IMG/VR virus record: IMGVR_UViG_3300037418_004082
Reading direction: 5' to 3' (one strand)
Origin: a virus
DNA: 64,000 bases
Position numbers and translations under genes: made by a program. Position 1 is the first letter of the stretch; each line of letters starts with the position of its first letter. This document shows positions 27,843-63,565 of the stretch, in pieces. Under the pieces are notes generated by a model. That model ran no database searches, was not told where the DNA came from, and saw only the letters and a program-made list of their open reading frames with translations.

Positions 27843-27859
27843 CAGCCAACCATATTTAT

Positions 27860-27921
27860 CGTCTCCCGGACCCGCGCCTGATAATTCCACCAGGCGCGGG
27901 TCTTTGTCGTGTCGGGAGACG
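27860..27921 (+). promoter_or_regulatory. Double hairpin with GATAATTC in the loop; outer stem pairs the SD of gene 27926
   Basis: GACCCGCGCCTG/CAGGCGCGGGTC (12 bp) and CGTCTCCCG/CGGGAGACG (9 bp). Confidence 0.7.
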
Positions 27922-27925
27922 GTCA

Positions 27926-28450: not shown

Positions 28451-28470
28451 ACGAGAAGGAGCGCCCGGCC

Positions 28471-28761: not shown

Positions 28762-28772
28762 GGAGGCTCGTC

Positions 28773-29432: not shown

Positions 29433-29464
29433 ACCCTGCTCGTCAGGTAGAAAGGACCTCCCCC

Positions 29465-29773: not shown

Positions 29774-29797
29774 CTCCAGCCCAGGGAGGCAGCATCC

Positions 29798-32959: not shown

Positions 32960-32962
32960 GCT

Positions 32963-40336: not shown

Positions 40337-40348
40337 CGCGAGGACACC

Positions 40349-45004: not shown

Positions 45005-45016
45005 GAGGGCCTTCTC

Positions 45017-46459
45017 GTGATCAACGTCGTGTTCGCTCCCTGGCGCGTCGATGGCTCGCTCGCCATCATCTCGTGGAAGGTCTACCCGACCACCGGTCTC
45101 GCGCAAGTGGATCGCGTGGACTACCGGGTGTGGCGTGACGACAGCACGCCCGTTGTTGTCACCACGACCGACCTCACCAAGGAAGTGTCGATTGACGTCA
45201 CCAACTTCAACGGCGACCTGTTCGCGGAAGTGGTGGCGTACGACGCCGTCGGCAACACCAAGACGGAACTGACCGAACTATCGGTGAACAATCACGTGCC
45301 GCCCACGCCGCCCGATTGGCTGACGTACGACGCCTTCGGTTCCTCGTCGCTGACGCTGCGCTGGGGCGCGAGCTTCGTGTCCAACACCACGGTGAGCTGG
45401 AAGGTGTACCACCGCCAGGCCAGCGGCACCACGCCACTCGCGATCGTGCCGGTCTCCCAACTTTCCGCGTTCATCGCCATCGACCTGACCACGGTGGACG
45501 ACCTGTACGTGGTGGGTGTGGACGCCGACGGTCACGAGAGCGCGCCGTCGCCCGTGCTGGACCTGACGCCGCAGCTCGCGGGCCCCGTGATCGAGTTCAC
45601 GTCCTGGACGATGGGCGTGGTGAAGGCCACGATCGCGTTCTCGATCTCCGGCCCGCGGCCGATCGCGGCCGTGAGCTGGGTGGCGAAGCGCGCGGGCGTC
45701 GTGGTGGGCGAAGGGCTGACCGCGGGCACCGTGAACATCGACGTGGTGGACTTCGAGGGCCCGGTCGAGCTGTCCGTGACGGCCGTGGACGACCAGAACG
45801 TCAGCCGCACGGCCGTGGTGCACGCCCGGGTCTGGAATCGCATCCCGCGCCGCCCCGTGATCGAAGCGCAGGCGGTGGGCACCACCTACATCCGCCTGGA
45901 GGCCGGCAAGGACTTCGACGACCCCGCGACGGTGGCCTACGTCGAGGTCACGGGCCTGGGGCTGACCGTGCGACAGCCGGCGCCCTTCGTCTACACGTTC
46001 ATGGCGCTGCAGCCCGACACGGAGTACACGTTCACCGCGCGGGCCATCAACCCGGGCGGCTTCGCGGGTGCCGACAGCCAGCCATTCACCGTGCGGACCT
46101 TCGAGGACGTCTCCGCGACGGAGCCGGTGCCCGGCGCGCTCGTGCCGGGGCCGGTGCTCGCGCAGATTCTGCCATGGATGACCGGCGACCTGCTAGAATA
46201 CCTGTTGCAGGCAAGCGCGGACACCCGGGTCCGCGATGTCGCCAGCAAGCAGATCGTTCGCACTCCCGACGCCTTCGACCCGTTCCTCGCCATGGTGGCG
46301 CCCATCGCGGCGTCGCTGGGCAAGACCATCCGGGACGAGACCTCCGACTCCGCCAGCATGGAAGCCTCCTGGCTGATCGACAAGACGCCGGACACCCTGG
46401 GCAAGCTGGTCGTGTTGGCAGAGCGCGTGGCGTTCGGCAGCATCCTCAACAAGGGGTAG
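45017..46459 (+). CDS. Fibronectin type III repeat virion protein
   Basis: PPTPP..SLTLRW..WKVY; ALQPDTEYTFTARAIN. Confidence 0.8.
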   Translation: MINVVFAPWRVDGSLAIISWKVYPTTGLAQVDRVDYRVWRDDSTPVVVTTTDLTKEVSIDVTNFNGDLFAEVVAYDAVGNTKTELTELSVNNHVPPTPPDWLTYDAFGSSSLTLRWGASFVSNTTVSWKVYHRQASGTTPLAIVPVSQLSAFIAIDLTTVDDLYVVGVDADGHESAPSPVLDLTPQLAGPVIEFTSWTMGVVKATIAFSISGPRPIAAVSWVAKRAGVVVGEGLTAGTVNIDVVDFEGPVELSVTAVDDQNVSRTAVVHARVWNRIPRRPVIEAQAVGTTYIRLEAGKDFDDPATVAYVEVTGLGLTVRQPAPFVYTFMALQPDTEYTFTARAINPGGFAGADSQPFTVRTFEDVSATEPVPGALVPGPVLAQILPWMTGDLLEYLLQASADTRVRDVASKQIVRTPDAFDPFLAMVAPIAASLGKTIRDETSDSASMEASWLIDKTPDTLGKLVVLAERVAFGSILNKG

Positions 46460-46462
46460 CGC

Positions 46463-49400: not shown

Positions 49401-50371
49401 TGGACTATCCTGCCTTGATCGTAGACAACGAGCACACGTCGTTCGACTTGGTGGGCCACGTGCACGCCATCGCGATGACGTTCACGCCCACGTCGGTCGA
49501 ACAGCAGGTGACGTACACGCACCTGCGACCGGCCATCGGTGCCGTGGACGTCGTGCAGACCGACGAGGGCAAGGCGACGCCGGTCGGTCAGCGTGAAGCG
49601 ATGATCCCGTTCAAGACGGCGCGCAAGCAGGAGCTGATCTACGTGATGCCGCCCGACCGCAAGATCGCGCGGGACCCGGTGGCCTACCAGCAGTACCTGA
49701 AGGCGCAGGGGCTGTTCATCCCGGAGACCTTCTTGCCGATTCAGCTCCACGACCTGGGCGCGCACAAGCCGCCGCCGTTCCTGTACACGGGCGGCTTCGG
49801 GCTGGGCAAGCAGTTCCTGTCGTTCGACAAGACCGGCGTACCCAACAGCTTCCGGGACTTCAGCGGCTACGCGATCTACCTGGGCTACGTGACGGAGGCC
49901 AACAACCAGAAGGCGCTGCCGACGCACGAGAACAACCTGGTGTTCGCGGACACCCTGGGGACGCTCGACCGTGCCAAGGACGTCCAGACCGCCTACCAGT
50001 TCACCCGCCGGCCCATCCAGAAGGTCGGCCAGAACGACCTGACGAAGCGGCAAGCCTGCTTGGTGGCCTGGGCCGACGAGGCGGAGGAGCTGAACGGCGA
50101 CGTCGCCACCGGCAGCGAGAATTTCGGGCTCTCGCTCCTCAACCAGGTGCTCGCGCCCCTGGGCAAGAAGCCGACGCCCGCGGCCAAGCAGAAGGCCCAG
50201 GTGGGCTTCGGCGAGGCCATCGTGGTCTACACCGTGCCGCCGACGTACGACGCGAAGGGCAACATCACCGCGAAGGGCACCACGCTGGAGTTCGACGAGC
50301 AGGTGCGGGCGCTCGTGCGAGCGCACACCTTCCGGGTGCGGCGTAAGGAAGCCATCTGGGACGGCCGCTGA
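46463..50371 (+). CDS. Baseplate hub protein (gp27/late-control-D-like) with large insert
   Basis: FYVEGV..VHFL..IFEGEV.G..GRGLSF N-terminus; PNCNVVFP; YNAR..YTGRVEWNPYMMVDYPALIVD. Confidence 0.6.
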   Translation: MDSEDKNLPLTFEDKCGFYVEGVLCAFAVIQWIVEAGAVPQMFVTIPATPEMRSLSRRARVHFLVEEPAPPHDIVCIFEGEVSGRDFKKSADGRGLSFPVHHVVWHLDQYEMEALDNLVYIRALLNGTASTENVVATVTGSLLELFTPDNLVAILNDPAYVDKTTIAPGVKTAKVSADKLTVGDFVRGAFLLYRHVFNNSRIAATYTNDAMTFHQLGARFQLPDPAVVDWTDLYKRLMFALLTRGVNAAGGKQTFLDLVRTVCAQFLHQVVVQPHAESVTKQVQIKPQTFFNAIPNCNVVFPSMTGEVDFQESFTNKPTRMRTMFMPFGLSPDQDVSVLNRYFTVYAPVELQWRWEGISQVAAQSKPTAPQRAVDAKTKAPIIKKPVDGIPFVTQEEDARGIVSVDYPMPPMLNYAIMSEVSTYTRDAIDANLSPVDGTSDPAEVYKRLQSGTETDRLTKYRAFLSLALGHANGIDPQRFKSAPYLREFVNLDKLGGVVLPDTPTMVPTRIALMPLPIKVNLKNHTPTRQALVNTGVNYLVTRDGVVVEILRRDHQLFPEPLALPLGLKLAGVGNPGDYAALNKLVPPFGVARSEARGMIDFQAKNLVVPPVVYPEAAAVATNASYGDYVLLRPAVASNQPINFQTVRSSTMDDAMFARIRAGETSVHLEGGGLSVSGVVQGKTHYVKTNGNASQNDNCFVLKLPESIKIPFGVPLTLTINTKTSFVAGKPWLFCNHTKQATSASTLSHWANLGANQGIDAAVADNQVVGGNVGTVVIGFETLNGTLTGQQATMGAFLCAAIRQMGVKSVGETKAPKLGPATILMENVVEASSLYGPGARLDTSVGPLDVNGIKAQVSFFEQQLFKDFNTWDKDLTAGNTSSIGAPAVDVSAADRPTALPVDPATHSVFADNADLPTTPGMTPVSDADAKKLNAIGFNGATLQNFVHNYVSGYLNHQFYNARLGPQSYTGRVEWNPYMMVDYPALIVDNEHTSFDLVGHVHAIAMTFTPTSVEQQVTYTHLRPAIGAVDVVQTDEGKATPVGQREAMIPFKTARKQELIYVMPPDRKIARDPVAYQQYLKAQGLFIPETFLPIQLHDLGAHKPPPFLYTGGFGLGKQFLSFDKTGVPNSFRDFSGYAIYLGYVTEANNQKALPTHENNLVFADTLGTLDRAKDVQTAYQFTRRPIQKVGQNDLTKRQACLVAWADEAEELNGDVATGSENFGLSLLNQVLAPLGKKPTPAAKQKAQVGFGEAIVVYTVPPTYDAKGNITAKGTTLEFDEQVRALVRAHTFRVRRKEAIWDGR

Positions 50372-50377
50372 TAATTC
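50370..50377 (+). promoter_or_regulatory. GATAATTC candidate promoter heading the sigma/RNAP operon
   Basis: Overlaps the hub stop codon; GGAGG SD follows. Confidence 0.65.
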
Positions 50378-50393
50378 CTTTGGAGGGACCCTC

Positions 50394-51023
50394 ATGAGCA
50401 ACAAGCCGAACATCAACGCCGAACCGTCCGCGATGGCCGAAGTGGCCGGGGGCGCCGGGATGATTCTGGGGGTCGGCGGGTTCGCCGCCGCGCTCGCCAA
50501 GAAGAAGCCGTCGGCGCTCGCCGCGATGGCGAAGCACGCGGGTCTCGAACGCTTCGACGCCGACGACGCGTCGCACCGATCGGCCATCGGCGCTTTCGTG
50601 GCGCGCGAGAAGGCCGCGACCGTCACCGCCTGGGCCGCCCTGACGCCCGACGAGAAGCTGGCCCAGAAGTCCGCCTTCGAGGTCCGCTTCGGCACCCTGG
50701 AGAGCGCGGAGCGCCTGGTGGCGTTCGCGGAGAAGACCGCGGGCTTGTCGGAGAGCGACAAGGACCTGCTGCGCAAGGACCCGCAGGCTCTGCGCGACAC
50801 GGCCGCGGTGATGGACAAGCTCCGCCAGCGCACCTTCCTGGGCGCGATCGCGGGCACGGCCCTGGGCCACGGCATCGGCGAGTCCGCGCCCGCTCGCATC
50901 GGCGGCATGCTGGCCGGCGGCGCGCTGGGTGGTACGCTGGGGGCGCTCTCCGCGAACCCGAACGGCGACATGGCGCGCGTCTACGCGAGCGCGCTGGAGC
51001 GCCGGCAGCAGAAGCTGACCTGA
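50394..51023 (+). CDS. Glycine-zipper protein (putative internal virion/ejection protein)
   Basis: GGAGMILGVGG; LGAIAGTALGHGIG; GGMLAGGALGGTLG; AEKTAG. Confidence 0.7.
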   Translation: MSNKPNINAEPSAMAEVAGGAGMILGVGGFAAALAKKKPSALAAMAKHAGLERFDADDASHRSAIGAFVAREKAATVTAWAALTPDEKLAQKSAFEVRFGTLESAERLVAFAEKTAGLSESDKDLLRKDPQALRDTAAVMDKLRQRTFLGAIAGTALGHGIGESAPARIGGMLAGGALGGTLGALSANPNGDMARVYASALERRQQKLT

Positions 51024-51024
51024 C

Positions 51025-51786
51025 ATGGGCAGCTTCCGTGACGTCCTTCGCCGCCGGGCCGACAACGCCCCGGTGGCGCCCGCGCCTCGGCCAGAGGTCG
51101 CCTTTGACGAGCGGTGCAAGGCCGCTGCCAAGGCGCGCCCGCAGCCGCCGGAGGTAGAGCTGCCGGCGACGCCGTCGAACGTCTTCGTGCAGTACCAGCC
51201 GCTGATCGACAAGACGGTCGGCCGCTGGGCCAGCTCGGGTTTGCCCAAGGTGGTGCTCGACGCGGAGGCGAAGCGGATCGTCGCGAAGGCGCTGGGCAGT
51301 CACGACCCGTCGAAAGGTACGCTGGGGCTGCACCTGCAGAACCACCTCCAGCAGATGGACGCCTTCGTCAACACGTTCGCGCCGGACGTGCGCGTGCCGC
51401 TTGACCGTCTGCGCGACGTGAACAAACACGTGAGCGACGACATCGCGTTTCGTGTGGACCACGGGTATGCGCCGCAGAACGCCGGAGCGCTGAACAAGTT
51501 CCAGACCAACCTCTACTCGAAGGTACAAGCGGGTGGCTTCTCGCAGCCCGTGAAGGAGGATCTGGGGCACGAGCAGATCGCGATGGACTTCCTCTACCAC
51601 GACCTGCCCAAGACGCACAAGCTGGTTTTCGCGCACAGCGTTGGCTACAACGGCATGCCGAAGCTCACCACCAATGACCTCGCTACCAAGCTGGGCGTGA
51701 GCGCCGGCCGCGTCAGCCAGTTGAAGAACGACATCGCCCAGCGGGCACACGAGTACAACTACGCGATCGAGAGCCTGATGCGATGA
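51025..51786 (+). CDS. Phage sigma70-family factor (divergent regions 2 and 4)
   Basis: QYQPLIDKTVGRW..AEAKRIVAKALGSHDPSKG..DVRVP (region 2); HKLVFAHSVGYNG..TTNDLATKLGVSAGRVSQL (region 4 HTH). Confidence 0.8.
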   Translation: MGSFRDVLRRRADNAPVAPAPRPEVAFDERCKAAAKARPQPPEVELPATPSNVFVQYQPLIDKTVGRWASSGLPKVVLDAEAKRIVAKALGSHDPSKGTLGLHLQNHLQQMDAFVNTFAPDVRVPLDRLRDVNKHVSDDIAFRVDHGYAPQNAGALNKFQTNLYSKVQAGGFSQPVKEDLGHEQIAMDFLYHDLPKTHKLVFAHSVGYNGMPKLTTNDLATKLGVSAGRVSQLKNDIAQRAHEYNYAIESLMR

Positions 51787-52688
51787 ACAAGCAAGCCTAC
51801 ACCCTGCTGCACGCGGTGGACCCGATCGGGAACCAGGACTGGATCCCGGCGCCCAGTATGCTGCCGGAGGACCTGAACGGTCAGCCGGTCACGATGCTGC
51901 GCGCTTACCGCGAGGACAACCCGCACCTCCACGCGCTCGCGCAAGCCGTCATGCTGGGCGGCGTGCGCATGCTCCCCCGTCACATGCTCGTCGATCCGGC
52001 ACACCCCCGCAAGAAAGAGGCCACCATGTCCCGTCCGCACGACATCTTCCTCGCCAAGCAAGCGGCGGAGGGGTTCGACCCCATCCTGCAGCACCCCAAC
52101 CTGGCCGCCAAGCCGAAGGGCATGGACGAGCTGGCGGAGCGCAAGAAGCAGTACCAGATCGGCGCGAGCCTGGGCGGCGGTCTGGGTGCGGTCGCGGGCC
52201 TGGGCGGCGGCCTGCTGGCGGAGCGCGCGATCGGCCTGCGTTCGCCGATGATCCCGGCCTACGGCGCGCTCGCGGGTGCGTCGCTGGGTTCGGCGGCGGG
52301 CGTGGGCGCGGCCCAGCTCGGCCGCTTCATCGGCAAGCTCAAGCGCCACGATCGCGCGGCGGACGACTACGAGCGCCAGACCGGCACGTCGCTGCCGTTC
52401 GACGTGCGCCACCCGTACATGGCCCGCGTCGCCCCGCTCGTGGCGTCGAGCCTGATGGGCTCGGCCGTGGGCCACGCGATGGCTCACCGCCACGGCCTCT
52501 CCGGTCTGCAGGGCGCGCTGCTGGGCAACGTGGCGGGCTCTACCATCGGCGCCGTGCTGACGCCGGGCACGCTGGCCGTGCTGCAGGGTCGCCGTGACGC
52601 CCTGCTGAAGGGCAAGGTCAACCAGCGCATGCTCTCGCAATCCGTCGTGGACGAAGACACCCTCGACGAGCAGGCGATGCGGGGGTAG
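51783..52688 (+). CDS. Glycine-zipper protein; possible internal start at 52026
   Basis: GASLGGGLGAVAGLGGGLLA; four hydrophobic GxxxG tracts; FLAKQAA. Confidence 0.7.
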   Translation: MNKQAYTLLHAVDPIGNQDWIPAPSMLPEDLNGQPVTMLRAYREDNPHLHALAQAVMLGGVRMLPRHMLVDPAHPRKKEATMSRPHDIFLAKQAAEGFDPILQHPNLAAKPKGMDELAERKKQYQIGASLGGGLGAVAGLGGGLLAERAIGLRSPMIPAYGALAGASLGSAAGVGAAQLGRFIGKLKRHDRAADDYERQTGTSLPFDVRHPYMARVAPLVASSLMGSAVGHAMAHRHGLSGLQGALLGNVAGSTIGAVLTPGTLAVLQGRRDALLKGKVNQRMLSQSVVDEDTLDEQAMRG

Positions 52689-52690
52689 AC

Positions 52691-55600
52691 GTGCGCACGC
52701 CCCAATCCCTCTTCAAGGACATGGCCCGCGAGTTCGGCGAGGGTCTCACGCACGCGTTTCCGATCGTCACGCCCGACAAGAAGGCCGTGGCGATCACCGC
52801 CGTGCACGTGCCGACGATGCTCGACCCCACGGACTACAACGCCCAGAAGGACACCATCATGAAGGGCGGCACGTGGGGCGTGCCCGTCAAGGCGACGGTC
52901 GCCATGCACGACGCCAAGGGGAAGGTGACGAGCAAGCACGACGTGCGCGTGGGCTTCTTGCCGACGCCCACGAACCGCCACACGTTCATCATCAACGGCA
53001 AGGAGTACCAGGTGAACATGCAGCGCCGCCTGCGGCCCGGCGTGTACACCAAGTTCAACCAGCTCGGCCAGGCGACGGCGGACTTCAACCTGGGCAAGGG
53101 CCGCAACTTCGCGCTTGCGCTCGACCCGGAGAAGAACCAGGTGGAGATGAAGTTCGGCAGCTCGCGCGTGCCGCTGCTGCCGGTGCTGAAGCACGTCTTC
53201 GGCAAGACCACGCTGGGGCTGGGCAAGGCGTTCGACGCGCCGATGGGCGCCGACGCGGAGCTGACCGCGCTCAAGGACCTGCATGCGCTGGTGCTCAAGA
53301 ACCAGACGGTGCCGTCGGACAAGACCGGGATCGTGCACGGGTTGCAGGACTACTTCCAGGCCACGCAGCTCGAACCCGCCGTCACGAAGCTCGTCGTGGG
53401 GGAGGCGCACAGCAACGTCAACGGTGACGTGCTCCAGCTCGCGGCGAAGCAGTTGCTCGCCGTGCACAAGCGCGAAGTGGACCCGTCGGGCAAGGACCAG
53501 ATGGCGTTCACGGAAGTGCACGGCGTCGAGGACTTCCTGCGCGAGCGCGTGCAGAAGAACCGCGGGATGATCGGTTACAAGCTGCGTCCACGCATCGAGA
53601 AGTACGATGACGTGCGCGAGTTGAAGCTGCACCAGTATGTGCAGCCGCTGATCGACGACTTCTTCACGAAGAGCGCGCAGAGCAACCACGTGATGCAGAT
53701 CAACCCCCTGGAGATGAAGGAGAACGCCTACAAGCTCTCCAGCCTGGGCGAAGGCGCCATCGGCGACACGCACGCCGTGACGCCGGAGGTGCGCGTCATC
53801 CACCCCAGCTCGATGGGCTTCATCGACCCCGTGCGCACGCCCGACAACGCCAAGGCCGGCGTGGACGTGCGCCTGGCGCTGGGCGCGAGCAAGGTGGGCA
53901 AGAACCTGCTGATCGACGTGCAGGACCGCAACGGCGAGTTCGTCTCGATGTCGCCGGAGAAGCTCTACGACAAGGTGGTGGCTCACGACAAGGAGCCCGT
54001 GGAGAACGGGCTCGTGCGCGCCATCCACCGCGGCCAGCTCGTGGACGTGTCGCCGTCGAAGGTGGACTACCGCCTACAGGCCGACCGCCAGTTCACCGTC
54101 AGCACGACGCTCGTGCCGTTCCTCGCGAACACGCACGCGCACCGCGCCGCGATGGGCGCCAAGATGCTGGGCCAGGCCGTGAGCCTGGTCGATCGCGAGC
54201 CGCCCATCGTGGACACCCCGCACTCGGAGATCGCGGGCGAGTTCGCGTCGCTGCGCAGTCCCGTCGCGGGGACGGTCAGCAAGATCGAGAAGGGCGTCAT
54301 TCACATCAAGTCGGGCGACACGACGCACAAGGTGAACTTCCCTTACGAGTTCCCGCTCAACGGGCACTCGTTCCTGCACGCGACCCCCGTCGTGAAGGCG
54401 GGTGACACGGTGACCAAGAACCAACTGCTCGCCGACACCAACTTCACGCAGAACGGTCAGCTCGCGTTGGGCAAGAACCTCACCGTGGCCTACTTGCCGA
54501 TGAAGGGCCTCAACCACGAGGACGCGGTGGTCGTCACGCGAAGCGGCGCGGCCAAGCTCACGAGCCAGCACCAGCACATCGAAGAGGTGGAGATCGACGG
54601 GCGCAGCGTACACGACAAGAAGAAGTTCCAGGCCCACTTCCCGGGTCGCTTCGAGCTGCAGCACCTGGGCAAGCTGGACGACCAGGGCGTCGTGAAGGTC
54701 GGCACCCGGCTGCAGGAAGGCGACCCCATCCTTGCGAGCCTGCGCAAGCGGCTGATGTCGCCGGAGCAGCTCCTGCTGGGCAAGGCCAACAAGGGCCTGG
54801 TCGAACCGTTCAGCGACACCAGCGTGACCTGGGACAAGCCGTACGAAGGGCGTGTCACGGGCGTCGAGAAGACGTCCAAGGGCATCAAGGTGTCCATCTC
54901 GGCCGTGGCGACGCTGCAGGAGGGCGACAAGCTCTGCGGCCGGCACGGCAACAAGGGCGTCGTGGCGGCCATCATCCCGGACGCGGAGGCCCCGCGCACC
55001 GCCGACGGCAAGGTGCCCGACGTGATCCTGAACTCCGCCGGCCTGACGAGCCGCATGAACAACGGCCAGATCTACGAGGTCGTGGCCGCCAAGGCGCTCC
55101 AGGCGCTGGGCAAGGCAGGGCAGAAGTTCCCGCACTTCGCGGGCGTCAACACGCACCAGCTCGTGAAGATGCTGCGCGACAAGGCCGGCATCAGCGAGAC
55201 GGAGCAGCTCTACGACGGCACGACCGGCCGCAAGCTGGGCGGGCCGGTGCTGATGGGCCCCATGTACATGCTCAAGCTGTTCAAGCAGGCGGAGACCGGA
55301 TTCTCCGCGCGCTCCGGCGGCGATTACGACATCGACCTGCGGCCCACCAAGGGCGGCGAGGAGGGCGCGAAGTCGGTGGGCCACCTCGACCTGTATGGCC
55401 TGCTCGCGCACGGGGCGCGGGCGTTCGTGCGCGACGCCCACATGAAGAGCGAGTACAACCCGGAGGTCCTCACCGCGATGTGGAAGGGCCAGCCGCTGCC
55501 GCCGCCCAAGCCCACGTTCGCCTTCAAGAAGTTCGAGGCGATGCTGGGCGGCATGGGCGTTAACGTGAAGAAGGAGGGGCACACGCTGCAGCTCCTGCCG

Positions 55601-56980
55601 CAGACCGACGCGGAGACCCTGGCCCGGTCCAGCGGTCCTATCGTGCGTCCGCTCACGGTCAACGACAAGCCCGACCCCGTCACCAACCTGCCCTTCCGCC
55701 CGGAGGCGGGTGGCCTGTTCGACCCCAACGCCACGGGTGGGCTCGTGGGCACGCGTTGGAGTCACATCCCGCTCGCGGAGCCGATCGTGAACCCCTTGTT
55801 CCACAACGCCGCACGCACGTTGTTAGGATTGACCAAGGACGAGTTCAATGCTAACCTGTATGATCGCGGCGCAGTGCACGTCAAGCAACAACTTGCGGCC
55901 ATCGACGTGCCCGCACGTATCGACGAACTTAAGCATCAGCTCGTGAACACGAACGCCGTGTCGAAGCGTGACGGCATTCACAAGCAGTTGAAGTACCTCA
56001 CGGCATTACACAAGAGCGGACTCCGTCCAGAAGATGCGTACATCATGCACCACGTGCCCGTCGTGCCTCCTCACGTGCGGCCCATCTACCCGGACCCCGA
56101 CACGGGACGACTTGTCGTGTCGGACGCGAACGTTCTCTACAAGAACCTGATGCTCGTGAACGACCAGCTCGCGCAGCACAAGAACCTCGGCGACGCGGAC
56201 ACGATCCGCGCGTTGCGTCACGGGTTGAATGATGCGTTCGCCAAGGTGCAGGGCCTCGATGCACCAGCCGAGCAGATGTCGAAGGAGAAGCCCGCCGTGG
56301 GCTTCCTCAAGGTCATCACGGGCACCGGCCAGGCCAAGGATGGCTTCTTCCAGGCGAAGCTCGTGAGCCGGCGCCAGGACATCGCCGGTCGCGGCGTCGT
56401 GGTGCCGGATACGAGCCTGGGCATCGACGAGCTGGGCGTGCCCAAGGCCATGGCCTGGAAGATCTACCGCAACCACGGCATCGGCGAGTTGGTGCAGAGC
56501 GGTATGCCCCTCGTGGCGGCCGCCCGCGAGTTCGAAGACCAGACGCCGACCGCCGAAAAGGCCGTGCTTTCGGCCATGAAGAAGTTCCCGACCGTGATCT
56601 CGCGTGCGCCCTCGCTCCACAAGTTCAACATCGCGGCCTTCCGGCCTCGGATGGTGGAGGGCAAGAGCCTGCGCGTGAACACGCTCGTGCTCAAGGGGTT
56701 CAACATGGACTTCGACGGGGACCAGGTCAACGTGCACGTACCCATCTCGCCGGAAGGCGCGAAGGATGCGGTCACGCGGATGCTGCCTTCCGCCAACCTG
56801 TACAACCCCTTGAACTCCGCGCCGATCCACGTGCCGTCTCAAGAGACGGTGCTGGGTCTGTGGAAGGCGACCAACGTCGCCGGGAAACCGCCCGTTCGCT
56901 CCTTCGCCACCCAACAGGAAGCGACCGCGGCTTACCGACGGGGTGAGATCGGCATCACCGACCCCATTTCCATCGGTTGA
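52691..56980 (+). CDS. rpoB-rpoC(N): RNA polymerase beta subunit fused to the N-terminal half of beta'
   Basis: Beta motifs TFIINGKE, DPVRTPD, GDKLCGRHGNKG, SRMN.GQ, GPMYMLKL; beta' motifs PVVPPHVRP, RAPSLH, NMDFDGD, PSQETVLG. Confidence 0.97.
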   Translation: MRTPQSLFKDMAREFGEGLTHAFPIVTPDKKAVAITAVHVPTMLDPTDYNAQKDTIMKGGTWGVPVKATVAMHDAKGKVTSKHDVRVGFLPTPTNRHTFIINGKEYQVNMQRRLRPGVYTKFNQLGQATADFNLGKGRNFALALDPEKNQVEMKFGSSRVPLLPVLKHVFGKTTLGLGKAFDAPMGADAELTALKDLHALVLKNQTVPSDKTGIVHGLQDYFQATQLEPAVTKLVVGEAHSNVNGDVLQLAAKQLLAVHKREVDPSGKDQMAFTEVHGVEDFLRERVQKNRGMIGYKLRPRIEKYDDVRELKLHQYVQPLIDDFFTKSAQSNHVMQINPLEMKENAYKLSSLGEGAIGDTHAVTPEVRVIHPSSMGFIDPVRTPDNAKAGVDVRLALGASKVGKNLLIDVQDRNGEFVSMSPEKLYDKVVAHDKEPVENGLVRAIHRGQLVDVSPSKVDYRLQADRQFTVSTTLVPFLANTHAHRAAMGAKMLGQAVSLVDREPPIVDTPHSEIAGEFASLRSPVAGTVSKIEKGVIHIKSGDTTHKVNFPYEFPLNGHSFLHATPVVKAGDTVTKNQLLADTNFTQNGQLALGKNLTVAYLPMKGLNHEDAVVVTRSGAAKLTSQHQHIEEVEIDGRSVHDKKKFQAHFPGRFELQHLGKLDDQGVVKVGTRLQEGDPILASLRKRLMSPEQLLLGKANKGLVEPFSDTSVTWDKPYEGRVTGVEKTSKGIKVSISAVATLQEGDKLCGRHGNKGVVAAIIPDAEAPRTADGKVPDVILNSAGLTSRMNNGQIYEVVAAKALQALGKAGQKFPHFAGVNTHQLVKMLRDKAGISETEQLYDGTTGRKLGGPVLMGPMYMLKLFKQAETGFSARSGGDYDIDLRPTKGGEEGAKSVGHLDLYGLLAHGARAFVRDAHMKSEYNPEVLTAMWKGQPLPPPKPTFAFKKFEAMLGGMGVNVKKEGHTLQLLPQTDAETLARSSGPIVRPLTVNDKPDPVTNLPFRPEAGGLFDPNATGGLVGTRWSHIPLAEPIVNPLFHNAARTLLGLTKDEFNANLYDRGAVHVKQQLAAIDVPARIDELKHQLVNTNAVSKRDGIHKQLKYLTALHKSGLRPEDAYIMHHVPVVPPHVRPIYPDPDTGRLVVSDANVLYKNLMLVNDQLAQHKNLGDADTIRALRHGLNDAFAKVQGLDAPAEQMSKEKPAVGFLKVITGTGQAKDGFFQAKLVSRRQDIAGRGVVVPDTSLGIDELGVPKAMAWKIYRNHGIGELVQSGMPLVAAAREFEDQTPTAEKAVLSAMKKFPTVISRAPSLHKFNIAAFRPRMVEGKSLRVNTLVLKGFNMDFDGDQVNVHVPISPEGAKDAVTRMLPSANLYNPLNSAPIHVPSQETVLGLWKATNVAGKPPVRSFATQQEATAAYRRGEIGITDPISIG

Positions 56981-56991
56981 ATCACCATCGC

Positions 56992-57022
56992 GCGACGCGG
57001 GGACCACGTGGCCCTCGCGTCG
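56992..57022. repeat. Stem-loop after the RNAP gene (possible terminator, no U tract)
   Basis: GCGACGCGGGG / CCCTCGCGTCGC. Confidence 0.45.
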
Positions 57023-57066
57023 CACCACTGTCGAAGCACATTCGTGTATGGTAGGAGAGATTACGC

Positions 57067-59871
57067 ATGCTCTTGAAAGACCTTCCGCTCCGCGTGCAAA
57101 CCATCGCGGCGCAGTCCGTTCGTGTGTCGGACAACGCCCAAACGGTGATGGAGAAGCGCTACTACGTGAAGGATGACCAGCGCAAGCCCACGGAAGACGT
57201 GGACGGCATGTACTGGCGGGTGGCCTTCACGCTGGCTCTGATCGACGTCCGCTACGGCGGCAACCCCACGCTCCTGATGGAGCAGACCCAGGACGGTCTG
57301 TACGAGGTCTCGGAGTTCGAGGCCGACGACGCGATCATCTACGCGGCCGCGCTGCGCTTCTACCGCGTGATGCGCGACGGCATGTGGCTCCCCAACAGCC
57401 CCTGCGTCGCCAACGCGGGCGCTCGCACCGGCCAGCTCTCGGCCTGCTTCGTGCTGCCCATCCCCGACGACCTGGAGGGCATCTTCGAGACCGTGAAGCA
57501 GGCGGCCCTGATCCACCAGACCGGCGGCGGCACGGGCTTCGCCTTCAGCCGCCTGCGCCCCAAGAACGACATCGTCAACTCCTCCAAGGGCAACTCCAGC
57601 GGCCCGGAGTCCTTCCTGGAGGTCTTCAACGCCTCCACGGAGTCCATCAAGCAGGGCGGCATGCGCCGCGGCGCCAACATGGGCATCCTGCGCATCGATC
57701 ACCCGGACATCGAGAGCTTCATCGTCAAGAAGCTGGAGCCGGGCGTGTGGGCCAACTTCAACGTCAGCGTGGGCGTCACCGACGCTTTCGAGCAGGCCCT
57801 GGAGGCGGAGGATGACCGCTACGAGCTGATCAACCCGCGCAGCGGCCCGACCGGTCAGTTCCTGCACGCGCGCCAGGTGCTCAAGAGCATCGTGAAGTGC
57901 TCGTGGACTCGCGGCGAGCCCGGCCTGGTCTTCCTGAACCGCATGAACCGGGAGAACCCCGTGCCGCACGCGGGCGAGTACGAGGCGACCAACCCTTGCG
58001 GCGAACAGCCCCTGATCCCCTACGAGTCCTGCAACCTGGGCTCGATCACGCTCGATCGCTTCGTCGTTCCCGCGGTTCCCGGTCGCTACACGGCGGAGAC
58101 CCAGACCCACGGAGAGTCTTCCGGTCGGCTGTGGATCCCGGGGCAGCCCGCGCGGATCGACTGGGACGGCCTGGCCGCTGCGGTCAAGATCGGCGTCTGG
58201 GCGATGGACAACGTCGTGGACGCCAACGCCTACGTGCCCAAGGTGCCCCAGATCGCGCAGATGGCCCTGTACACCCGCAAGATCGGCCTGGGCATCATGG
58301 GCCTGGCCCGCGCCCTGTTCAAGCTCAAGCTGGGCTACCACACGCCCGAAGGCCGCGAGATGGCCGCCTTGCTCTTCGCCTTCATCGACGCGCACGCCAA
58401 GCTGGCGTCGCAGGAGTTGTCGAAGCAGCGCGGCGTGTACCCGTACTACGCGGAGCACCGCGAGGAGTCGGAGAGCTTCCACCGCCGGCTGTTCGCGAAG
58501 CGCCAGAAGGCCGTGGAAGGCTACATCGGGACCGGTGTCGTCGCCAACGTCGGCGTGTGGAACATCGTGCACAAGCTCTACGGTCAGGCCATCGACCAGC
58601 TCCCGACGCACGGTATGCGCAACTCCACGACCGGCACGATCGCGCCCACCGGCACGCTCTCGATCTTCCACGAGACCTCCGGCGGCTGCGAGCCCGTGTT
58701 CGCCATCGTGTTCACGCGCTTCCAGGCCGACGAGGAGATGCCCGACACCGACCCCGTCGTGCGTCAGGAGCTGCTCGACATCTTCGGCGGCGACGAGACG
58801 ATGGTGGCCCGCGTGCTGGAGATCGTCCAGAAGCAGGAAGCCGAAGGCGGCATCGACGGCTCGCTGGTCAGCGCGCTGAAGCTGGGCTTCCTGCGCGGCT
58901 TCGGTACGATCGAGCAGTACGAAGCGCTCACGCAGGCGTCGGAGTACCTGGTCTGCGCGCCCGACGTGCACCCGATGGACCACGTGCGCATGCAAGCCGG
59001 GCTGCAGATCTTCAACGACAGCGCCGTGTCGAAGACGATCAACTTCTCGGAGAACGCCACGGAGCAGGACATCGAAGACGCGATGATGCTCGCCATCAAG
59101 TTGGGCGTCAAGGGCATCACCGTGTACCGCGACAAGAGCCGCGAGTTCCAACCGCTCACCGCCGGCACGAAGTCGAGCAAGGCGTTGGCGGAGAAACCCG
59201 TTGACACGAACGTCGTGACGACGTTTAATGGGGAGACCACCACGCTCCCCACGACAACGGAGGTCAAGCCGGTGACGACCAGCACCCAGGGACCGCGTCC
59301 GCGCACCGAAGACCTGTTCGGCTTCACGCGCACCATCACGACCGGAGACGGGAAGCTCTACGCCACGCTGAACTACGACGAGTTCGGCATGCGCGAGGTC
59401 TTCCTGAACATCGGGCGTTCCGGCGGCACGACCCACAGCTTCGGCGAAGCGTTGGGCCGCATGGTCACGCTCGCGCTCCAGAACGGCGTGGACCCCGACG
59501 CGATCGCGTCCAACCTGGTGGGCATCCGCAGCTCCGATCCGTCGGGCTTCGGGGCGAGCCGGGTGCTGTCCATCGCCGACGGCGTGGGGCAGTTGCTCAA
59601 GAACGCGCCGCGATCGCTGAAGGAGCTGTACGCGCCGGAGGCACCCCTGCACGGTCGCGGCGGCGCCCACGGCAGCGGGTACGTCCACATCCAGCAGCTC
59701 CCGCCCGTCGAGGTCACGGTGGGCGCCGCCCAGACGCAGGACGAGCGCACCTACCGCGTGCAGGTGCTGGGCGAGAGCCCGGACTGCCCGGACTGCGGCA
59801 AGGCGCTCCGCTTCGAGGAGGGGTGCAAGAAGTGCCCCGACTCCGTCTGCGGTTACAGCGCCTGCTCGTAA
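57067..59871 (+). CDS. nrdJ: Class II (B12-dependent) ribonucleotide reductase with TSCPD domain and Zn ribbon
   Basis: PNSP, QLSACFV, GGGTG, RRGANMG, TNPCGEQ, ESCNLGSI, TIAPTG, VSKTIN; C-terminal CPDCG..EEGC..C..CGYS. Confidence 0.95.
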   Translation: MLLKDLPLRVQTIAAQSVRVSDNAQTVMEKRYYVKDDQRKPTEDVDGMYWRVAFTLALIDVRYGGNPTLLMEQTQDGLYEVSEFEADDAIIYAAALRFYRVMRDGMWLPNSPCVANAGARTGQLSACFVLPIPDDLEGIFETVKQAALIHQTGGGTGFAFSRLRPKNDIVNSSKGNSSGPESFLEVFNASTESIKQGGMRRGANMGILRIDHPDIESFIVKKLEPGVWANFNVSVGVTDAFEQALEAEDDRYELINPRSGPTGQFLHARQVLKSIVKCSWTRGEPGLVFLNRMNRENPVPHAGEYEATNPCGEQPLIPYESCNLGSITLDRFVVPAVPGRYTAETQTHGESSGRLWIPGQPARIDWDGLAAAVKIGVWAMDNVVDANAYVPKVPQIAQMALYTRKIGLGIMGLARALFKLKLGYHTPEGREMAALLFAFIDAHAKLASQELSKQRGVYPYYAEHREESESFHRRLFAKRQKAVEGYIGTGVVANVGVWNIVHKLYGQAIDQLPTHGMRNSTTGTIAPTGTLSIFHETSGGCEPVFAIVFTRFQADEEMPDTDPVVRQELLDIFGGDETMVARVLEIVQKQEAEGGIDGSLVSALKLGFLRGFGTIEQYEALTQASEYLVCAPDVHPMDHVRMQAGLQIFNDSAVSKTINFSENATEQDIEDAMMLAIKLGVKGITVYRDKSREFQPLTAGTKSSKALAEKPVDTNVVTTFNGETTTLPTTTEVKPVTTSTQGPRPRTEDLFGFTRTITTGDGKLYATLNYDEFGMREVFLNIGRSGGTTHSFGEALGRMVTLALQNGVDPDAIASNLVGIRSSDPSGFGASRVLSIADGVGQLLKNAPRSLKELYAPEAPLHGRGGAHGSGYVHIQQLPPVEVTVGAAQTQDERTYRVQVLGESPDCPDCGKALRFEEGCKKCPDSVCGYSACS

Positions 59872-59885
59872 GGTAGAACCAGAGG

Positions 59886-59910
59886 CCCCCGGCGATTGCC
59901 GGGGGTTTTT
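59886..59910 (+). terminator. Intrinsic terminator
   Basis: CCCCCGGC-GATT-GCCGGGGG-TTTTT. Confidence 0.9.
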
Positions 59911-59920
59911 GCTTGGGGCG

Positions 59921-59928
59921 GATAATTC
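59921..59928 (+). promoter_or_regulatory. GATAATTC candidate promoter for a leaderless helicase mRNA
   Basis: After a terminator; ATG 12 nt after the G; no SD. Confidence 0.7.
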
Positions 59929-59932
59929 AAGC

Positions 59933-61489
59933 ATGCGACCTTACGAACTCTTCCTCGCCAAGACCGCTCGCCTCCGGCCCGACATCGAGCTGGCGCCCCA
60001 TCAGCAAGAGGCCGTCGAACGCGTGGCGCGCACGCGAGCCCAACTGCTCGCGCACGGCACGGGCACCGGCAAGACCGGCACGAGCGCGGCCGCCGTCGAG
60101 CGCCTGCGCGAGCTGGGCAAGGCCAAGCGCACGCTCGCCGTCGTGCCGGCGCCCTTGATCGACAACTACGCCGACGAGGGCGTGAAGAAGTTCACGGACC
60201 AGTCCGTCACGAAGCTGGGTCCTGACGGTACGCCGGGTCATCATCACATCGACAGCAAGCTGCCCAACAGCAGCTACTACGTCGTGAGCAACGAGATGTT
60301 CCGCAAGGACCCTCACAAGTATATCGACCGCACGGGTGCCGACACCGTCATCTGGGACGAGGCGCACAAGGGCCGATCGGAAGAGTCGCTCAACTACCAC
60401 GCGATGAAGTCGATCCGTCACAAGGTGAAGAACTTCATCGCGCTCACCGGCACGCCCGCGATGAACCACCCGCACGACATCGTCCCGCTGATTGACGTGG
60501 TCAGCAACGGCCAGCATAACCTGGGCACGACGGCCCAGTTCGACAAGCTGTACACGACCACGCGCACGCGGACGCACGGTCCGCTCGCCTGGGCGGGCAT
60601 CGGGCCGAAGACGCAGGAGGTGGTGCTGAAGAACCAGCACATGCTGCGGCCGGAGCTGAACAAGCACATCCACTACGTGCCCGTCGAGGATGTCGTGAAG
60701 AACATGCCGAAGAAGATCGTGCACACGCACGAAGTCGAGATGAGCCCACATCAGAAGTCGCTGTACGACTTCACGATGGGCCAGATCGACCCGGCGACGC
60801 GTGCGAAGATCAAGAACAACGTGCCCGTGAGCCAGGGGGAAGCACGCTCGATCCTCACGAAGATCGTACGCACGCGCCAGTTGTCGAACGCCGTACACAC
60901 GATGGACTCCGGTCACGACGCGGGCTCGGCCGCCGAAGCGACGCCCAAGATGCGCCGGATGCTCGACGACGTGCACCGTCACCTGCAAGAGCATCCCGGC
61001 AACAAGGCGATCGTCTACACGAACCTGGTGCACGGCGGCGTGGACGCGGCCGTCGCCGGGCTCAAACACCGCGGCTACGAACCGGGCGTCTTCACGGGCA
61101 CCCAGCAGCAGGCGCGCAGCGAGCGCACCCAGCACATCAAGGACTACATGGCAGGCCACAAGCGCGTGATGGTCATCAACAGCGCCGGCACGGAGGGTCT
61201 CAACCTGCCGGGCACGACGGCGCACTTCACGCTCGACGGCCACTTCAACCCCAAGGTGACCGAACAAGCCGAAGCGCGTGGTATCCGGGCGGGCTCCCCC
61301 GTCAAGGAGGTCCACGTGCACCGCTACCTCTCGACGCCGCCCAAGGTGTTCGGTCTCTTCAAGAGCCCGGAGACGAGCGTGGACCAGTGGGTCTACAACG
61401 TCGCCGCACGCAAGGAGCACTTGAACAACCAGGTGCTCACGTTGTTGGATCGTGGAGGACAGCGGCATGTCGATCGGAAAGCACTTTAG
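59933..61489 (+). CDS. SNF2-like SF2 helicase/translocase
   Basis: LAPHQ, AHGTGTGKT, VVPAPL, DEAH, LTGTP, GTEGLNL, EQAEARGIR. Confidence 0.9.
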   Translation: MRPYELFLAKTARLRPDIELAPHQQEAVERVARTRAQLLAHGTGTGKTGTSAAAVERLRELGKAKRTLAVVPAPLIDNYADEGVKKFTDQSVTKLGPDGTPGHHHIDSKLPNSSYYVVSNEMFRKDPHKYIDRTGADTVIWDEAHKGRSEESLNYHAMKSIRHKVKNFIALTGTPAMNHPHDIVPLIDVVSNGQHNLGTTAQFDKLYTTTRTRTHGPLAWAGIGPKTQEVVLKNQHMLRPELNKHIHYVPVEDVVKNMPKKIVHTHEVEMSPHQKSLYDFTMGQIDPATRAKIKNNVPVSQGEARSILTKIVRTRQLSNAVHTMDSGHDAGSAAEATPKMRRMLDDVHRHLQEHPGNKAIVYTNLVHGGVDAAVAGLKHRGYEPGVFTGTQQQARSERTQHIKDYMAGHKRVMVINSAGTEGLNLPGTTAHFTLDGHFNPKVTEQAEARGIRAGSPVKEVHVHRYLSTPPKVFGLFKSPETSVDQWVYNVAARKEHLNNQVLTLLDRGGQRHVDRKAL

Positions 61490-61724
61490 CGGTAACGACG
61501 AGACGACGGCCATCAACGTGTACAAGCTCTCGTTGATCGGCGTCGCCGACCTACGTGACGTGTGCGATCGTCACCATCTACCCGTGCGCATCGACGTGAT
61601 GCTACCGGGCACGAAACAGGAGTTCATCCAGGTTGTAGCGCCGCACGCGCAGATGCTACAATTTGTGTTCTATCTGTTCAACAACGAGTTCAACTACAAG
61701 TACGAGTTAGGGAGCACGCCGTGA
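61467..61724 (+). CDS. Hypothetical protein
   Basis: GGAGG SD; TGA overlaps the start of the beta' C gene. Confidence 0.6.
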   Translation: MSIGKHFSGNDETTAINVYKLSLIGVADLRDVCDRHHLPVRIDVMLPGTKQEFIQVVAPHAQMLQFVFYLFNNEFNYKYELGSTP

Positions 61725-63565
61725 GCCGCGTCACCACCATTGGTCAACTCCTAGTCGAGGACGCCCTCCCGAAGGGCGTGAAGTCGCCGGGCTTGCTCGA
61801 CAAGTCCGGGATGGGCAAGCTCTTGAGCACCGTCGCCCAGACGCACCCGCAGCAGTACGGCGAGGTCGTGAAGTCGATCCGCGACGTCGGCAACCAGGTG
61901 GCCTTCGAGACGGGCAGCAGCTTCACGCTGGAGGATCTGGAGCCCAAGACGGGGATGCGCGACGCCGCGTTCGAGGAACACGAGGCAGAACTGCTGGCCG
62001 CGCGCAAGGCGCTCTCCGCCGACCCGCGCTCGACGGCGCTGCAGGCCCGGAAGATCGGTGTCCTCGCGAAGATCGAGGAGACTATGAACAAGGGCATCGG
62101 CGCGTTCGTCAAGAAGGCGCCCGACAACCTTACCGCCTGGGTAGCCTCTGGCGCCCGCGGCGACGTCGCGATGGCTCGCCAGATGGTCGGGATGGCCGGC
62201 ATGAACTTGGACGCCGCCAACCGTCTGATCCCGGAGATCGCGAAGCGGAGCTTGAGCGAGGGCTTGAGCCCTATCGACTTCCACGTGCACGCGCAGGGTG
62301 CGCGGCGCGGTCTCGTCAACACGTACCTGGCCGTGCGCGACCCCGGCGCGTTCGCCAAAGAGCTGAACACCATCCACATGGACATGCTCGTCACGGGCGC
62401 CGATTGCGGCACGACGCACGGCCGCGAGATGCTGACGTCCGACCCGGACATCGTGGACCGCTGTCTGGCCCAGGACGTGGCCGGCGTGGGCTACCGCAAC
62501 GACGTCATCACGACGGCCATGCGCGACGCGCTCGTGAAGCGTCACAAGACGGTGCAGGTCCGCTCGCCGCTGACGTGCACCCAGGTCACGGGCGTCTGCG
62601 CGCACTGCTTGGGGCTGAACGAGGAAGGCCGCCTGCCGCCGGTGGGTGAGCACGTGGGCCTCAAGGCGGCGCAAGCGCTCACGGAGCCCCTGACCCAGCT
62701 CGCGCTCAACCAGAAGCACACCGGCGGCGTCGTGGGCGCCGGCCGCAGCCCGCTGCAGAAGATCCTGACCTTCATGCACGCGCCCAAGAACTTCCCCGGC
62801 GCCGCGCCGCTCGCCCGCGCGAGCGGGACGATCACGTCGATCGACAAGGCGGCCGCGGGCGGCTACCACGTCCACATCGGCGAGCTGCAGCACTACGTCG
62901 GCCCGGAGTCGGAGCTGCGGGTCAAACCCGGCCAGGCCGTGGCCGCGGGCGACGTGTTGGGCAGCGGCCAGCCCAACCCGGTCGAGGTGGTGGCCTACAA
63001 GGGGATGCAGGAGGGCCGGCGCTACTTCGCCGACGAGCTGAAGAAGACCTACGCCGACGCGGGCATCCGCGGGCAGGGTCGCATCTTCGAGACCGTGGCA
63101 CGTGGCATCCTCAACCTGGGCCAGGTGGTGTCCGGCGGCCGCCACGACTACACGCCCGGCGAGATGGTCCACTGGAACGCCATCCAGGAACACCTCCCGA
63201 CCTCGCACGAGAGCGTCGCGACCGGCGGCGCCACGGGACGGATTCTCGCGCAGGAGGCCGGCGGCCTGCTCCCCTACACCACCCTCACCGCGACCCACGT
63301 GGAGAAGCTCAAGAAGCTGGGCTTGCCCAATGTGCCGGTCTTCCACAAGGACGCCCTCGTGGTGCGGCCGGTGATGCTGGGGACGGAGCGCGCGGCCCTG
63401 CACAAGGACGACTGGCTCGCGAACCTGGCCTTCCGCTTCGTCAACCGCACGTTCAAGGAGAACGCGGCCACGGGCGCCAAGGCGACGGTAGGCGGGGGCT
63501 TCAACCCCATCCCCACGTTCGTCTACGGCCAGCACTTCGGCGAAGGCAAGGGAGGGCGCTACTAA
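61721..63565 (+). CDS. rpoC(C): RNA polymerase beta' C-terminal subunit
   Basis: TTIGQLL..LDK; SGARG; QMVGMAG; EGLS; GARRGL (bridge helix); DCGT, RSPLTC..GVCAHC (Zn site); EPLTQLALNQKHTGG (trigger loop). Confidence 0.96.
   Translation: MSRVTTIGQLLVEDALPKGVKSPGLLDKSGMGKLLSTVAQTHPQQYGEVVKSIRDVGNQVAFETGSSFTLEDLEPKTGMRDAAFEEHEAELLAARKALSADPRSTALQARKIGVLAKIEETMNKGIGAFVKKAPDNLTAWVASGARGDVAMARQMVGMAGMNLDAANRLIPEIAKRSLSEGLSPIDFHVHAQGARRGLVNTYLAVRDPGAFAKELNTIHMDMLVTGADCGTTHGREMLTSDPDIVDRCLAQDVAGVGYRNDVITTAMRDALVKRHKTVQVRSPLTCTQVTGVCAHCLGLNEEGRLPPVGEHVGLKAAQALTEPLTQLALNQKHTGGVVGAGRSPLQKILTFMHAPKNFPGAAPLARASGTITSIDKAAAGGYHVHIGELQHYVGPESELRVKPGQAVAAGDVLGSGQPNPVEVVAYKGMQEGRRYFADELKKTYADAGIRGQGRIFETVARGILNLGQVVSGGRHDYTPGEMVHWNAIQEHLPTSHESVATGGATGRILAQEAGGLLPYTTLTATHVEKLKKLGLPNVPVFHKDALVVRPVMLGTERAALHKDDWLANLAFRFVNRTFKENAATGAKATVGGGFNPIPTFVYGQHFGEGKGGRY

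Follow-up and report, generated by a model that had tools for sequence, protein, structure and literature searches.

The virus DNA analysed here is a window of 64,000 nucleotides, corresponding to positions 19702-83701 of the 153,476-bp IMG/VR virus record IMGVR_UViG_3300037418_004082 (positions below are those of the window unless the record or another contig is named), and it carries the genes for a bacterial-type multisubunit RNA polymerase (RNAP). The record has a G+C content of about 66% and, according to CheckV, a completeness of about 74%. The polymerase is encoded in two pieces: one gene in which a compact β subunit runs directly into the N-terminal part of β' (β::β'N) and, 4.7 kb downstream, a separate gene for the remainder of β' (β'C). 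A preliminary description of the sequence had proposed this architecture, and it is borne out by Pfam, by alignments to PDB chains and by a structural model. Domain and family comparisons were made against Pfam, PHROG, NCBIfam, PDB chains and the protein Atlas, an AlphaFold model was made of β'C, and the RNAP alignment comprised the window protein, 12 bacterial rpoB-rpoC pairs and the phage relatives.

The fusion gene is a single open reading frame (ORF) of 1429 codons at 52691-56980 (+). Pfam places Rpb2_3 and Rpb2_6 (E 2e-57) at amino acids 336-881 of its product and Rpb1_1 and Rpb1_2 (E 9e-24) at 1093-1360. PDB β chains match amino acids 275-969 (best E 1e-72) and PDB β' chains amino acids 1050-1428, with residues 174-540 of E. 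coli β' aligning to 1050-1418. The conserved-lysine motif of the β barrel, RHGNKGV, lies at amino acids 751-757, and the metal site, NMDFDGD (of NADFDGD type), at 1338-1344. The extent of the ORF, its single frame and the placing of GMGVNVK near 55570 were all correct in the preliminary description, the motif occupying amino acids 954-960 (nt 55550-55570); PSQETVLG also lies where it had been put, at amino acids 1382-1389, though the ORF does not stop just after it, since 40 further residues follow. At the junction there is no linker, the β C-terminus (..GMGVNVKKE) passing directly into the β' N-terminus (GHTLQLLPQTD..), and the junction alignment has the zinc-binding domain of β' (CxC...CxxC) deleted in all members of the phage clade. 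The clamp helices are kept, and so, in shortened form, is the flap-tip helix; these two are the main docking sites for sigma.

The β-β'N junction is not an assembly artefact. An assembly or frameshift error at 55560-55600 is ruled out by recurrence of the junction in clusters, in contigs and in the proteome of a cultured relative, Salmonella phage Arash: the identical fusion protein is present on 7 contigs, the longest of 193,568 bp, the junction is also seen in more than 100 independent protein clusters, and the Arash counterpart of the fusion protein was recovered with 100% peptide coverage (PMC10585845).

The β'C gene starts at the GTG at 61721, with GGGAG 6 nt upstream, and its 614-amino acid product begins MSRVTTIGQ, again as first described. 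Pfam finds Rpb1_4/Rpb1_5 in it, it aligns with residues ~660-1167 of actinobacterial β' chains, and the cysteines of its Cys4 zinc site (C229, C286, C293 and C296) are invariant or nearly so across its family. An AlphaFold model of the protein, with a predicted local distance difference test score (pLDDT) of 83.4, matched bacterial β' chains over 620-665 columns at E values of 1e-31 to 1e-33. No SI3-type insert was found in β'C, in keeping with an earlier claim, because the 614 residues align contiguously to actinobacterial β', which is SI3-less. At the C-terminus of β' (63480-63565 in the window) there is a conserved tail, NPIP...YG..FG.GK.G.Y, which is shared by split and uncut forms (P0031, P0039, P0054 and others); it did not align to bacterial β', and the model falls below a pLDDT of 60 beyond about residue 590.

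The first chain ends ..DPISIG and the second begins MSRVTTIGQ; in phage homologues that are not cut, the two stretches adjoin without a gap (..V-S/G-G-x-x-T-x-V-G-R/Q..). Bacterial enzymes have a hairpin of variable length (0-45 residues) here, and the cut thus cleanly breaks a variable loop on the surface, immediately after the catalytic barrel. On solved structures, the end of chain 1 corresponds to about residue 829 of Thermus β', and residue 3 of β'C to residue 664 of M. smegmatis β'. Cyanobacterial γ extends ~75 residues beyond the end of phage chain 1, and residues 10-14 of RpoC2 align with residues 25-27 of β'C, which puts the cyanobacterial cut past the TTxGR helix, ~12-17 residues later; the preliminary description had put the phage cut just before a motif of this type and the cyanobacterial one after it, and the alignment agrees. 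Both phiKZ-type polymerases have β' cut after the DPBB domain, at the cyanobacterial position (Sokolova et al., PMC7598289). The phage cut therefore uses the same seam as cyanobacteria, plastids and phiKZ-type phages, only slightly ahead of the cyanobacterial point.

The same layout is widespread among other phages. In GenBank phages, tblastn gave full-length, one-piece matches to the fusion protein in Arash (33% identity) and in Vibrio phages D69, D148 and D181, all of them cut at the same residue as the window enzyme. Arash (OQ632216) encodes gp206 (1525 aa) and gp216 (606 aa) on one strand, 4.7 kb apart, with the helicase gene gp217 directly after gp216 and the sigma gene gp196 nearby. Nine IMG/VR loci hold relatives of 31-65% identity; seven are cut at that same residue, with 1.4-5 kb between the halves, and the other two (L007 and L009) are uncut, with a single ORF of more than 2100 codons. 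Among the best 120 clusters at 90% identity, ranked by similarity to the fusion protein, two thirds (80) are β::β'N chains, most of which end 0-5 residues from the end of the window protein, with the tail AAYRRGEI..DPIEI; 30 are complete β::β' fusions of ~2000-2120 aa, and 7 are cut elsewhere, giving chains of 1100-1140 aa with β and only the first ~100 residues of β'. An exhaustive search with β'C gave 5442 representatives at E <=1e-3, of which 1143 were at <=1e-30; layout was classed for the best 150, where 92 are stand-alone proteins with the same start, M..TT(V/I)G(Q/R)LL, and 40 are full fusions. A third layout is seen on contig L098 (2411-8469), where a 1140-aa gene is directly followed by an 836-aa gene for the rest of β', uncut at the usual seam; this arrangement is also present in P0110, P0114 and P0118-P0122, and it nests in the split clade beside Arash.

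The RNAP genes of several relatives contain in-frame inserts of 200-500 codons (L002:9889-15765, L006:9752-15205, L007:1-6432, L010:9848-14875 and L003:16491-19454), and the Pfam intein/LAGLIDADG domains PF14890 and PF14528 are recorded for many family members; from these sequences, inteins appear to be common in this polymerase family. A homing endonuclease was considered as the agent of the split; ten ORFs from the stretches that separate the halves in L002, L003, L005, L006 and L010 gave no Pfam match, a result that speaks neither for nor against it. Phage-type complete β::β' fusions (34% identity) also occur on two contigs assigned to metagenome-assembled genomes, one of Leptolyngbyaceae (L017, 162 kb) and one of Bacteroidales (L018, 204 kb); in both cases phage contigs or prophages have probably been binned with bacterial sequence.

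Judged by its sequence, the window enzyme is one more member of a large phage lineage, comprising hundreds of uncultured phages together with cultured Arash. It shows all of the features of the Arash type: the linker-less fusion lacking the zinc-binding domain, the chain ends (chain 1 tail ..AAYRRGEI..DP(I/V)xI, chain 2 start M..TT(V/I)G(Q/R)) and the grouping in trees. The rarity of fusion plus split in one enzyme, implied in the preliminary description, does not hold up, as the combination is standard in this lineage, cultured members (Arash; Vibrio phages D69, D148 and D181) included. A limited literature search turned up no description of a phage enzyme of β::β'N plus β'C form. The Arash paper names the genes simply β and β', and mentions neither fusion nor split (PMC10585845).

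Trees were built with FastTree and with IQ-TREE under LG+G4 (39 rows) from ~1400 columns, restricted to the part common to all layouts, and were rooted on 8-12 bacteria from nine phyla. Phage and bacterial enzymes separate into two clades, each with support of 100, the best identities to bacterial enzymes being 25-31%. The window enzyme lies outside the sampled cellular rpoBC lineages, and its split is therefore independent of the cyanobacterial one, as had been supposed. The split forms and the cut-elsewhere variant make up one clade (99 in FastTree, 99 by SH-aLRT in IQ-TREE), the full fusions branch at the base of the phage clade, and one change between full and split suffices in a 116-row tree. 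The basal paraphyly of the full fusions is not secure, because an approximately unbiased (AU) test does not reject a single full-fusion clade (p 0.25). Both layouts share the linker-less junction and the loss of the zinc-binding domain, and the event count on these sequences favours an order of separate genes, then fusion, then one cut.

Neither α (PF01000, PF01193) nor ω (PF01192) was found by Pfam anywhere in the 153-kb record, which extends what had been noted for the window alone; PF01000 was likewise not found in five complete relatives (four of 208-214 kb, and Arash), and the controls for this search were positive in 14 of 14 genomes. A hidden α or ω among the ORFs linked to the RNAP genes was looked for with Pfam, PHROGs, NCBIfam and the Atlas, which gave only weak glycine-zipper-like leads; the operon's unassigned ORFs are not conserved across the lineage and have no α-like features. 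No second RNAP set was found in the genome, which has a single one. An RpoD-like sigma gene, homologous to Arash gp196, lies at record positions 107075-107980; with a sigma-70-family factor and its docking sites both present, binding to the core is predicted.

The genes and signals around the two RNAP genes are listed in Table 1. The motif GATAATYY, which resembles a -10 element, occurs 11 times in the window (12880-59928), always on the + strand and against an expectation of 0.72; the whole record has 20 copies on the + strand and 2 on the - strand. Most copies lie 10-45 nt ahead of start codons, and the motif precedes tail-fibre-like genes, a tRNA array, the fusion-gene operon (50370) and the SNF2-β'C unit (59921). 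The RNAP block is preceded, on its own strand, by a tail module (19035-34405), after which come four very large ORFs (36059-50371) for which there is no PHROG match and, only in the case of 45017-46459, a weak Pfam match to fn3.

Table 1. Features of the RNAP region and of the upstream tail module; ranges are window positions
Feature	Position	Strand	Remarks
Two fibre-like or decoration-like genes	19035-20504, 20605-22602	+	Tail module
Endolysin-like gene	28254-29432	+	Tail module
Tape-measure-like gene	29798-32959	+	Tail module
GATAATTC, -10-like promoter motif	50370-50377	+	24 nt ahead of the gene that opens the fusion-gene operon
209-aa ORF, no assigned function	50394-51023	+	No match in Pfam, PHROG or NCBIfam; weak glycine-zipper-like leads only in the Atlas
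253-aa weakly sigma-like protein, region 4 helix-turn-helix only	51025-51786	+	Sigma70_r4 E 0.0025 and 7.5e-5, both under the Pfam cut-off
301-aa ORF, no assigned function	51783-52688	+	Overlaps the stop of the sigma-like gene; ends 2 nt ahead of the fusion gene
β part of fusion, aa 1-962	52691-55576	+	Compact β; RHGNKGV barrel motif; short flap-tip helix
β'N part of fusion, aa 963-1429	55577-56980	+	Zinc-binding domain absent; clamp helices; catalytic barrel with NMDFDGD; C-terminal end ...DPISIG
Ribonucleotide reductase (RNR) large subunit (barrel + TSCPD)	57067-59871	+	Ribonuc_red_lgC E 4e-109, TSCPD; phrog_84 E 3e-125
GC-rich hairpin + T run, terminator-like	59885-59911	+	Downstream of the RNR gene and ahead of the second promoter-like motif; read from the sequence
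Second GATAATTC motif	59921-59928	+	5 nt before the SNF2 ATG; heads the unit SNF2 - small ORF - β'C
SNF2-family helicase, 518 aa from ATG	59933-61489	+	SNF2-rel_dom, ResIII, Helicase_C (Pfam); weak RapA match among many SNF2 models
85-aa ORF	61467-61724	+	Stop overlaps the β'C start (GTGA)
β'C, 614 aa	61721-63565	+	Bridge helix; Cys4 zinc site; trigger loop without SI3; C-terminal clamp part

The 253-aa sigma-like ORF has no PDB or NCBIfam match; L002, L004 and L008 also have its gene ahead of the one for the fusion protein. It was considered as a relative of the Arash sigma gp196 and shows no similarity to it. The 301-aa ORF has no family match in Pfam, PHROG, NCBIfam or the Atlas and is absent from Arash; close relatives have two or three tandem paralogues of it (L004:8023-9824; L008:7813-9708). 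In a 65%-identical relative (L004:14366-17761), the RNR gene between the RNAP halves matches as two pieces ~850 nt apart, which suggests an intein or an inserted mobile gene within it. The SNF2 helicase is 30% identical to Arash gp217. Its N-terminal peptide, MRPYELFLAKTA, is nearly identical to those of four otherwise unrelated ORFs, MRPYDVFLAKHA, MRPYELYLAKTA, MRPIDVYMTIKA and MRPAIVYLLLKE, which lie at record positions 84530(-), 96766(+), 113455(-) and 127204(+); the common peptide could be a shared signal, perhaps a packaging tag. The 85-aa ORF is kept only in L008 (35% identity), directly upstream of the β'C gene there, and could be a small accessory protein or nothing.

Taken together, we put at roughly 0.85 the probability that the two genes encode the catalytic core of a sigma-dependent, α-less, bacterial-type two-barrel phage RNAP made of two chains, produced late and probably carried in the virion. 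Chain 1 would hold both active-site barrels, and chain 2, docking non-covalently as cyanobacterial RpoC2 does, would give the bridge helix, the second zinc site, the trigger loop and the rest of the clamp. The covalent β-β' tether may have taken over the assembly role of the α dimer; artificially tethered E. coli β-β' is functional, and Helicobacter uses a natural fusion. The genes would have passed from a separate state to a full β::β' fusion, which then received one cut in a variable surface loop, followed by insertion of other genes between the halves (here those for RNR and SNF2). The phage sigma is predicted to direct the core to -10-like GATAATYY promoters, and the enzyme, made late along with the tail genes, would be packaged and then injected to start the next infection.

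Late synthesis and packaging are favoured by the Arash virion proteome together with the tail-module context and the common motif. In the Arash virion, gp206 ranks first, with 3516 spectra, above the major capsid protein, and gp216 (1210), the helicase gp217 (1148) and the sigma gp10 (467) are present as well (PMC10585845). In the phage studied here, a tail module (tape measure, fibre-like genes) comes first and the RNAP genes come just after it in the same orientation, with one promoter-like motif found in both. On this analysis a late-made, packaged and injected enzyme is somewhat probable, less so than the two-chain core itself.

A number of points weigh against the account as a whole. For this phage the evidence consists of sequence, and the record, being ~74% complete, could have an α-like gene in its missing part, though the complete relatives are without one; highly divergent analogues of α or ω would escape Pfam, and the enzyme may use host α. 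The operon's own sigma-like ORF falls below family cut-offs. Abundant infection-stage enzymes might, according to the Arash authors, contaminate purified virions (PMC10585845). As to the history, the polarity of full fusion first depends on parsimony of events and on trees whose outgroup branch is long, the AU test leaves a single full-fusion clade unrejected, and the nesting of the cut-elsewhere variant in the split clade calls for re-joining or for repeated cuts at one hot spot.

The best-surviving alternative is that the two chains form a non-virion polymerase, transcribing middle or late genes after early transcription by the host RNAP, in the manner of the non-virion RNAP (nvRNAP) of phiKZ or AR9. 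The genome has a single RNAP set, its RpoD-like sigma could equally serve the host core, and the carry-over into virion preparations conceded in the Arash paper (PMC10585845) fits here too; however, gp206 tops the Arash virion spectra in the company of gp216, sigma and helicase (PMC10585845), and both RNAP units in the window have the motif of the tail-fibre genes and follow the tail module. We regard such a role as possible, though unlikely.

A little more doubtful is the proposal that the split was not a single ancient event, with the post-barrel loop a hot spot that has been cut repeatedly, or with full fusions derived from split ancestors through loss of the genes in between. Cyanobacteria, plastids and both phiKZ-type polymerases have β' cut at this seam too (PMC7598289), the lineage that is cut elsewhere is continuous at the usual seam and nests in the split clade, a single clade of full fusions is compatible with the AU test, and the gaps between halves, of 1.4 to 5 kb, have unrelated contents. 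Most split forms, however, end 0-5 residues apart with the AAYRRGEI..DPIEI tail; the second chain begins at one common residue, the split forms group as a single clade (support 99), and a path from unfused to fused to cut takes fewer events than any route from a split ancestor.

We consider it improbable that the core still needs an α-like platform, supplied either by host α2 (and ω) or by an unrecognised phage protein. All cellular enzymes need α, and the RNAP genes have two unassigned ORFs (209 and 301 aa) and the 85-aa ORF as close neighbours; against this, the record gives no PF01000, PF01193 or PF01192 signal and the five complete relatives no PF01000, the linked ORFs are neither α-like nor conserved across the lineage, and the phiKZ- and AR9-type enzymes work without α (PMC7598289). 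That the two products are joined after translation by a split intein, or by read-through, into one working chain is very improbable in spite of the inteins common in this gene family (PF14528, PF14890 and in-frame inserts), and is ruled out by the chain ends, which abut residues contiguous in uncut homologues and leave no room for intein halves, while the 4.7 kb separating the genes holds two large genes, a hairpin resembling a terminator and a promoter-like motif, and in Arash, gp206 and gp216 are reported as two distinct proteins (PMC10585845).

The two-chain, α-less core preferred here can be carried a step further, tentatively, to a natural minimal bacterial-type RNAP: a two-chain, sigma-dependent core free of α, ω and the zinc finger, in which the tether replaces the α platform and which the capsid would carry, together with its sigma and an SNF2 motor, for injection at the start of infection. 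Were this speculative picture true, the conserved cut would have been kept for a function (packaging, ejection or order of assembly), not as a neutral accident.

The architecture and its independence from that of cyanobacteria, both claimed at the outset, are confirmed, and its uniqueness does not hold. What the window itself adds is modest: one more member, GC-rich and of soil type, with RNR and SNF2 genes lodged between the halves. The wider interest lies in the lineage. To our knowledge every cellular multisubunit RNAP uses an α-type platform, and the well-studied exceptions are only the very divergent phiKZ/AR9 enzymes; this lineage aligns residue by residue with bacterial RNAP and keeps a sigma and its docking sites, with α and ω genes undetected and the β' zinc finger lost. 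That a single family includes uncut forms, forms cut once and forms cut at another place amounts to a natural experiment on what holds the large subunits together, where cuts are tolerated and why one seam, which recurs in cyanobacteria, plastids and phages, is used again, and a cultured member, Arash, which grows on Salmonella, makes these questions testable at the bench.

Among known systems, the closest are the RNAP of Arash and its homologues in Vibrio phages D69, D148 and D181, which share the two-chain layout, gene order, strand and cut residue; Arash also has an SNF2-type helicase beside β'C, a homologous RpoD-like sigma and no α gene that could be found. The sequences are distant (33% and 29% identity, the fusion protein being 33% identical over its full length), and the surroundings differ: between the halves Arash has small ORFs without assigned function in place of the RNR and SNF2 genes, and upstream it has a portal gene in place of the sigma-like gene and unassigned ORFs.

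The published clade of mRNAP-encoding Caudovirales (mReC; Weinheimer and Aylward 2020, PMC7481178) likewise consists of tailed phages whose compact bacterial-type β and β' align readily with the cellular enzymes, branch outside the bacteria and are encoded among virion genes. In mReC, however, β (~1000 or 1365 aa) and β' (~900-1010 aa) are separate, and its filters asked for separate β and β' of at least 800 aa each, with NADxDGD in β' (PMC7481178). Here that motif lies in the fusion protein and β'C has 614 aa, so the window enzyme is set apart by the published criteria, and the clade as published, which the preliminary description had named for inclusion in a phylogeny, does not cover it.

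The phiKZ/AR9-type RNAPs (PMC7598289, PMC7824862) are also phage-encoded, do without α and ω, have β' cut at the post-barrel seam and an SNF2-type helicase gene linked to the β'C gene, and include a virion-packaged form, as is predicted here. They differ in that β is cut as well, giving four or five chains, in having two paralogous sets and no sigma, and in being far more divergent; PHROG matches of the window RNAP to them are partial only (E 1e-5 to 4e-22). The uncut phage forms (L007, L009 and L017; ~2000-2120 aa) are joined just as tightly and have likewise lost the zinc-binding domain, but keep all of β' in the one chain.

In Helicobacter and Wolbachia, the natural full β::β' fusions lie inside ordinary cellular lineages, and α and ω are kept; as here, the β C-terminus is joined to the β' N-terminus in one ORF, though theirs holds all of β'. 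The split β' of cyanobacteria and plastids (γ/RpoC1 and RpoC2, or β' and β'') is cut, as here, after the catalytic barrel, into two chains that assemble non-covalently. There, however, β is a separate chain, α and ω are present, and RpoC2 has a large SI3 (~1320 aa in total against the 614 aa of β'C); with its cut 12-17 residues earlier, no SI3 and an unrelated place in the tree, the phage enzyme does not have a split of the RpoC1/RpoC2 type. It combines a cyanobacterial-like split at one end with a Helicobacter-like fusion at the other, and is a member of neither family.

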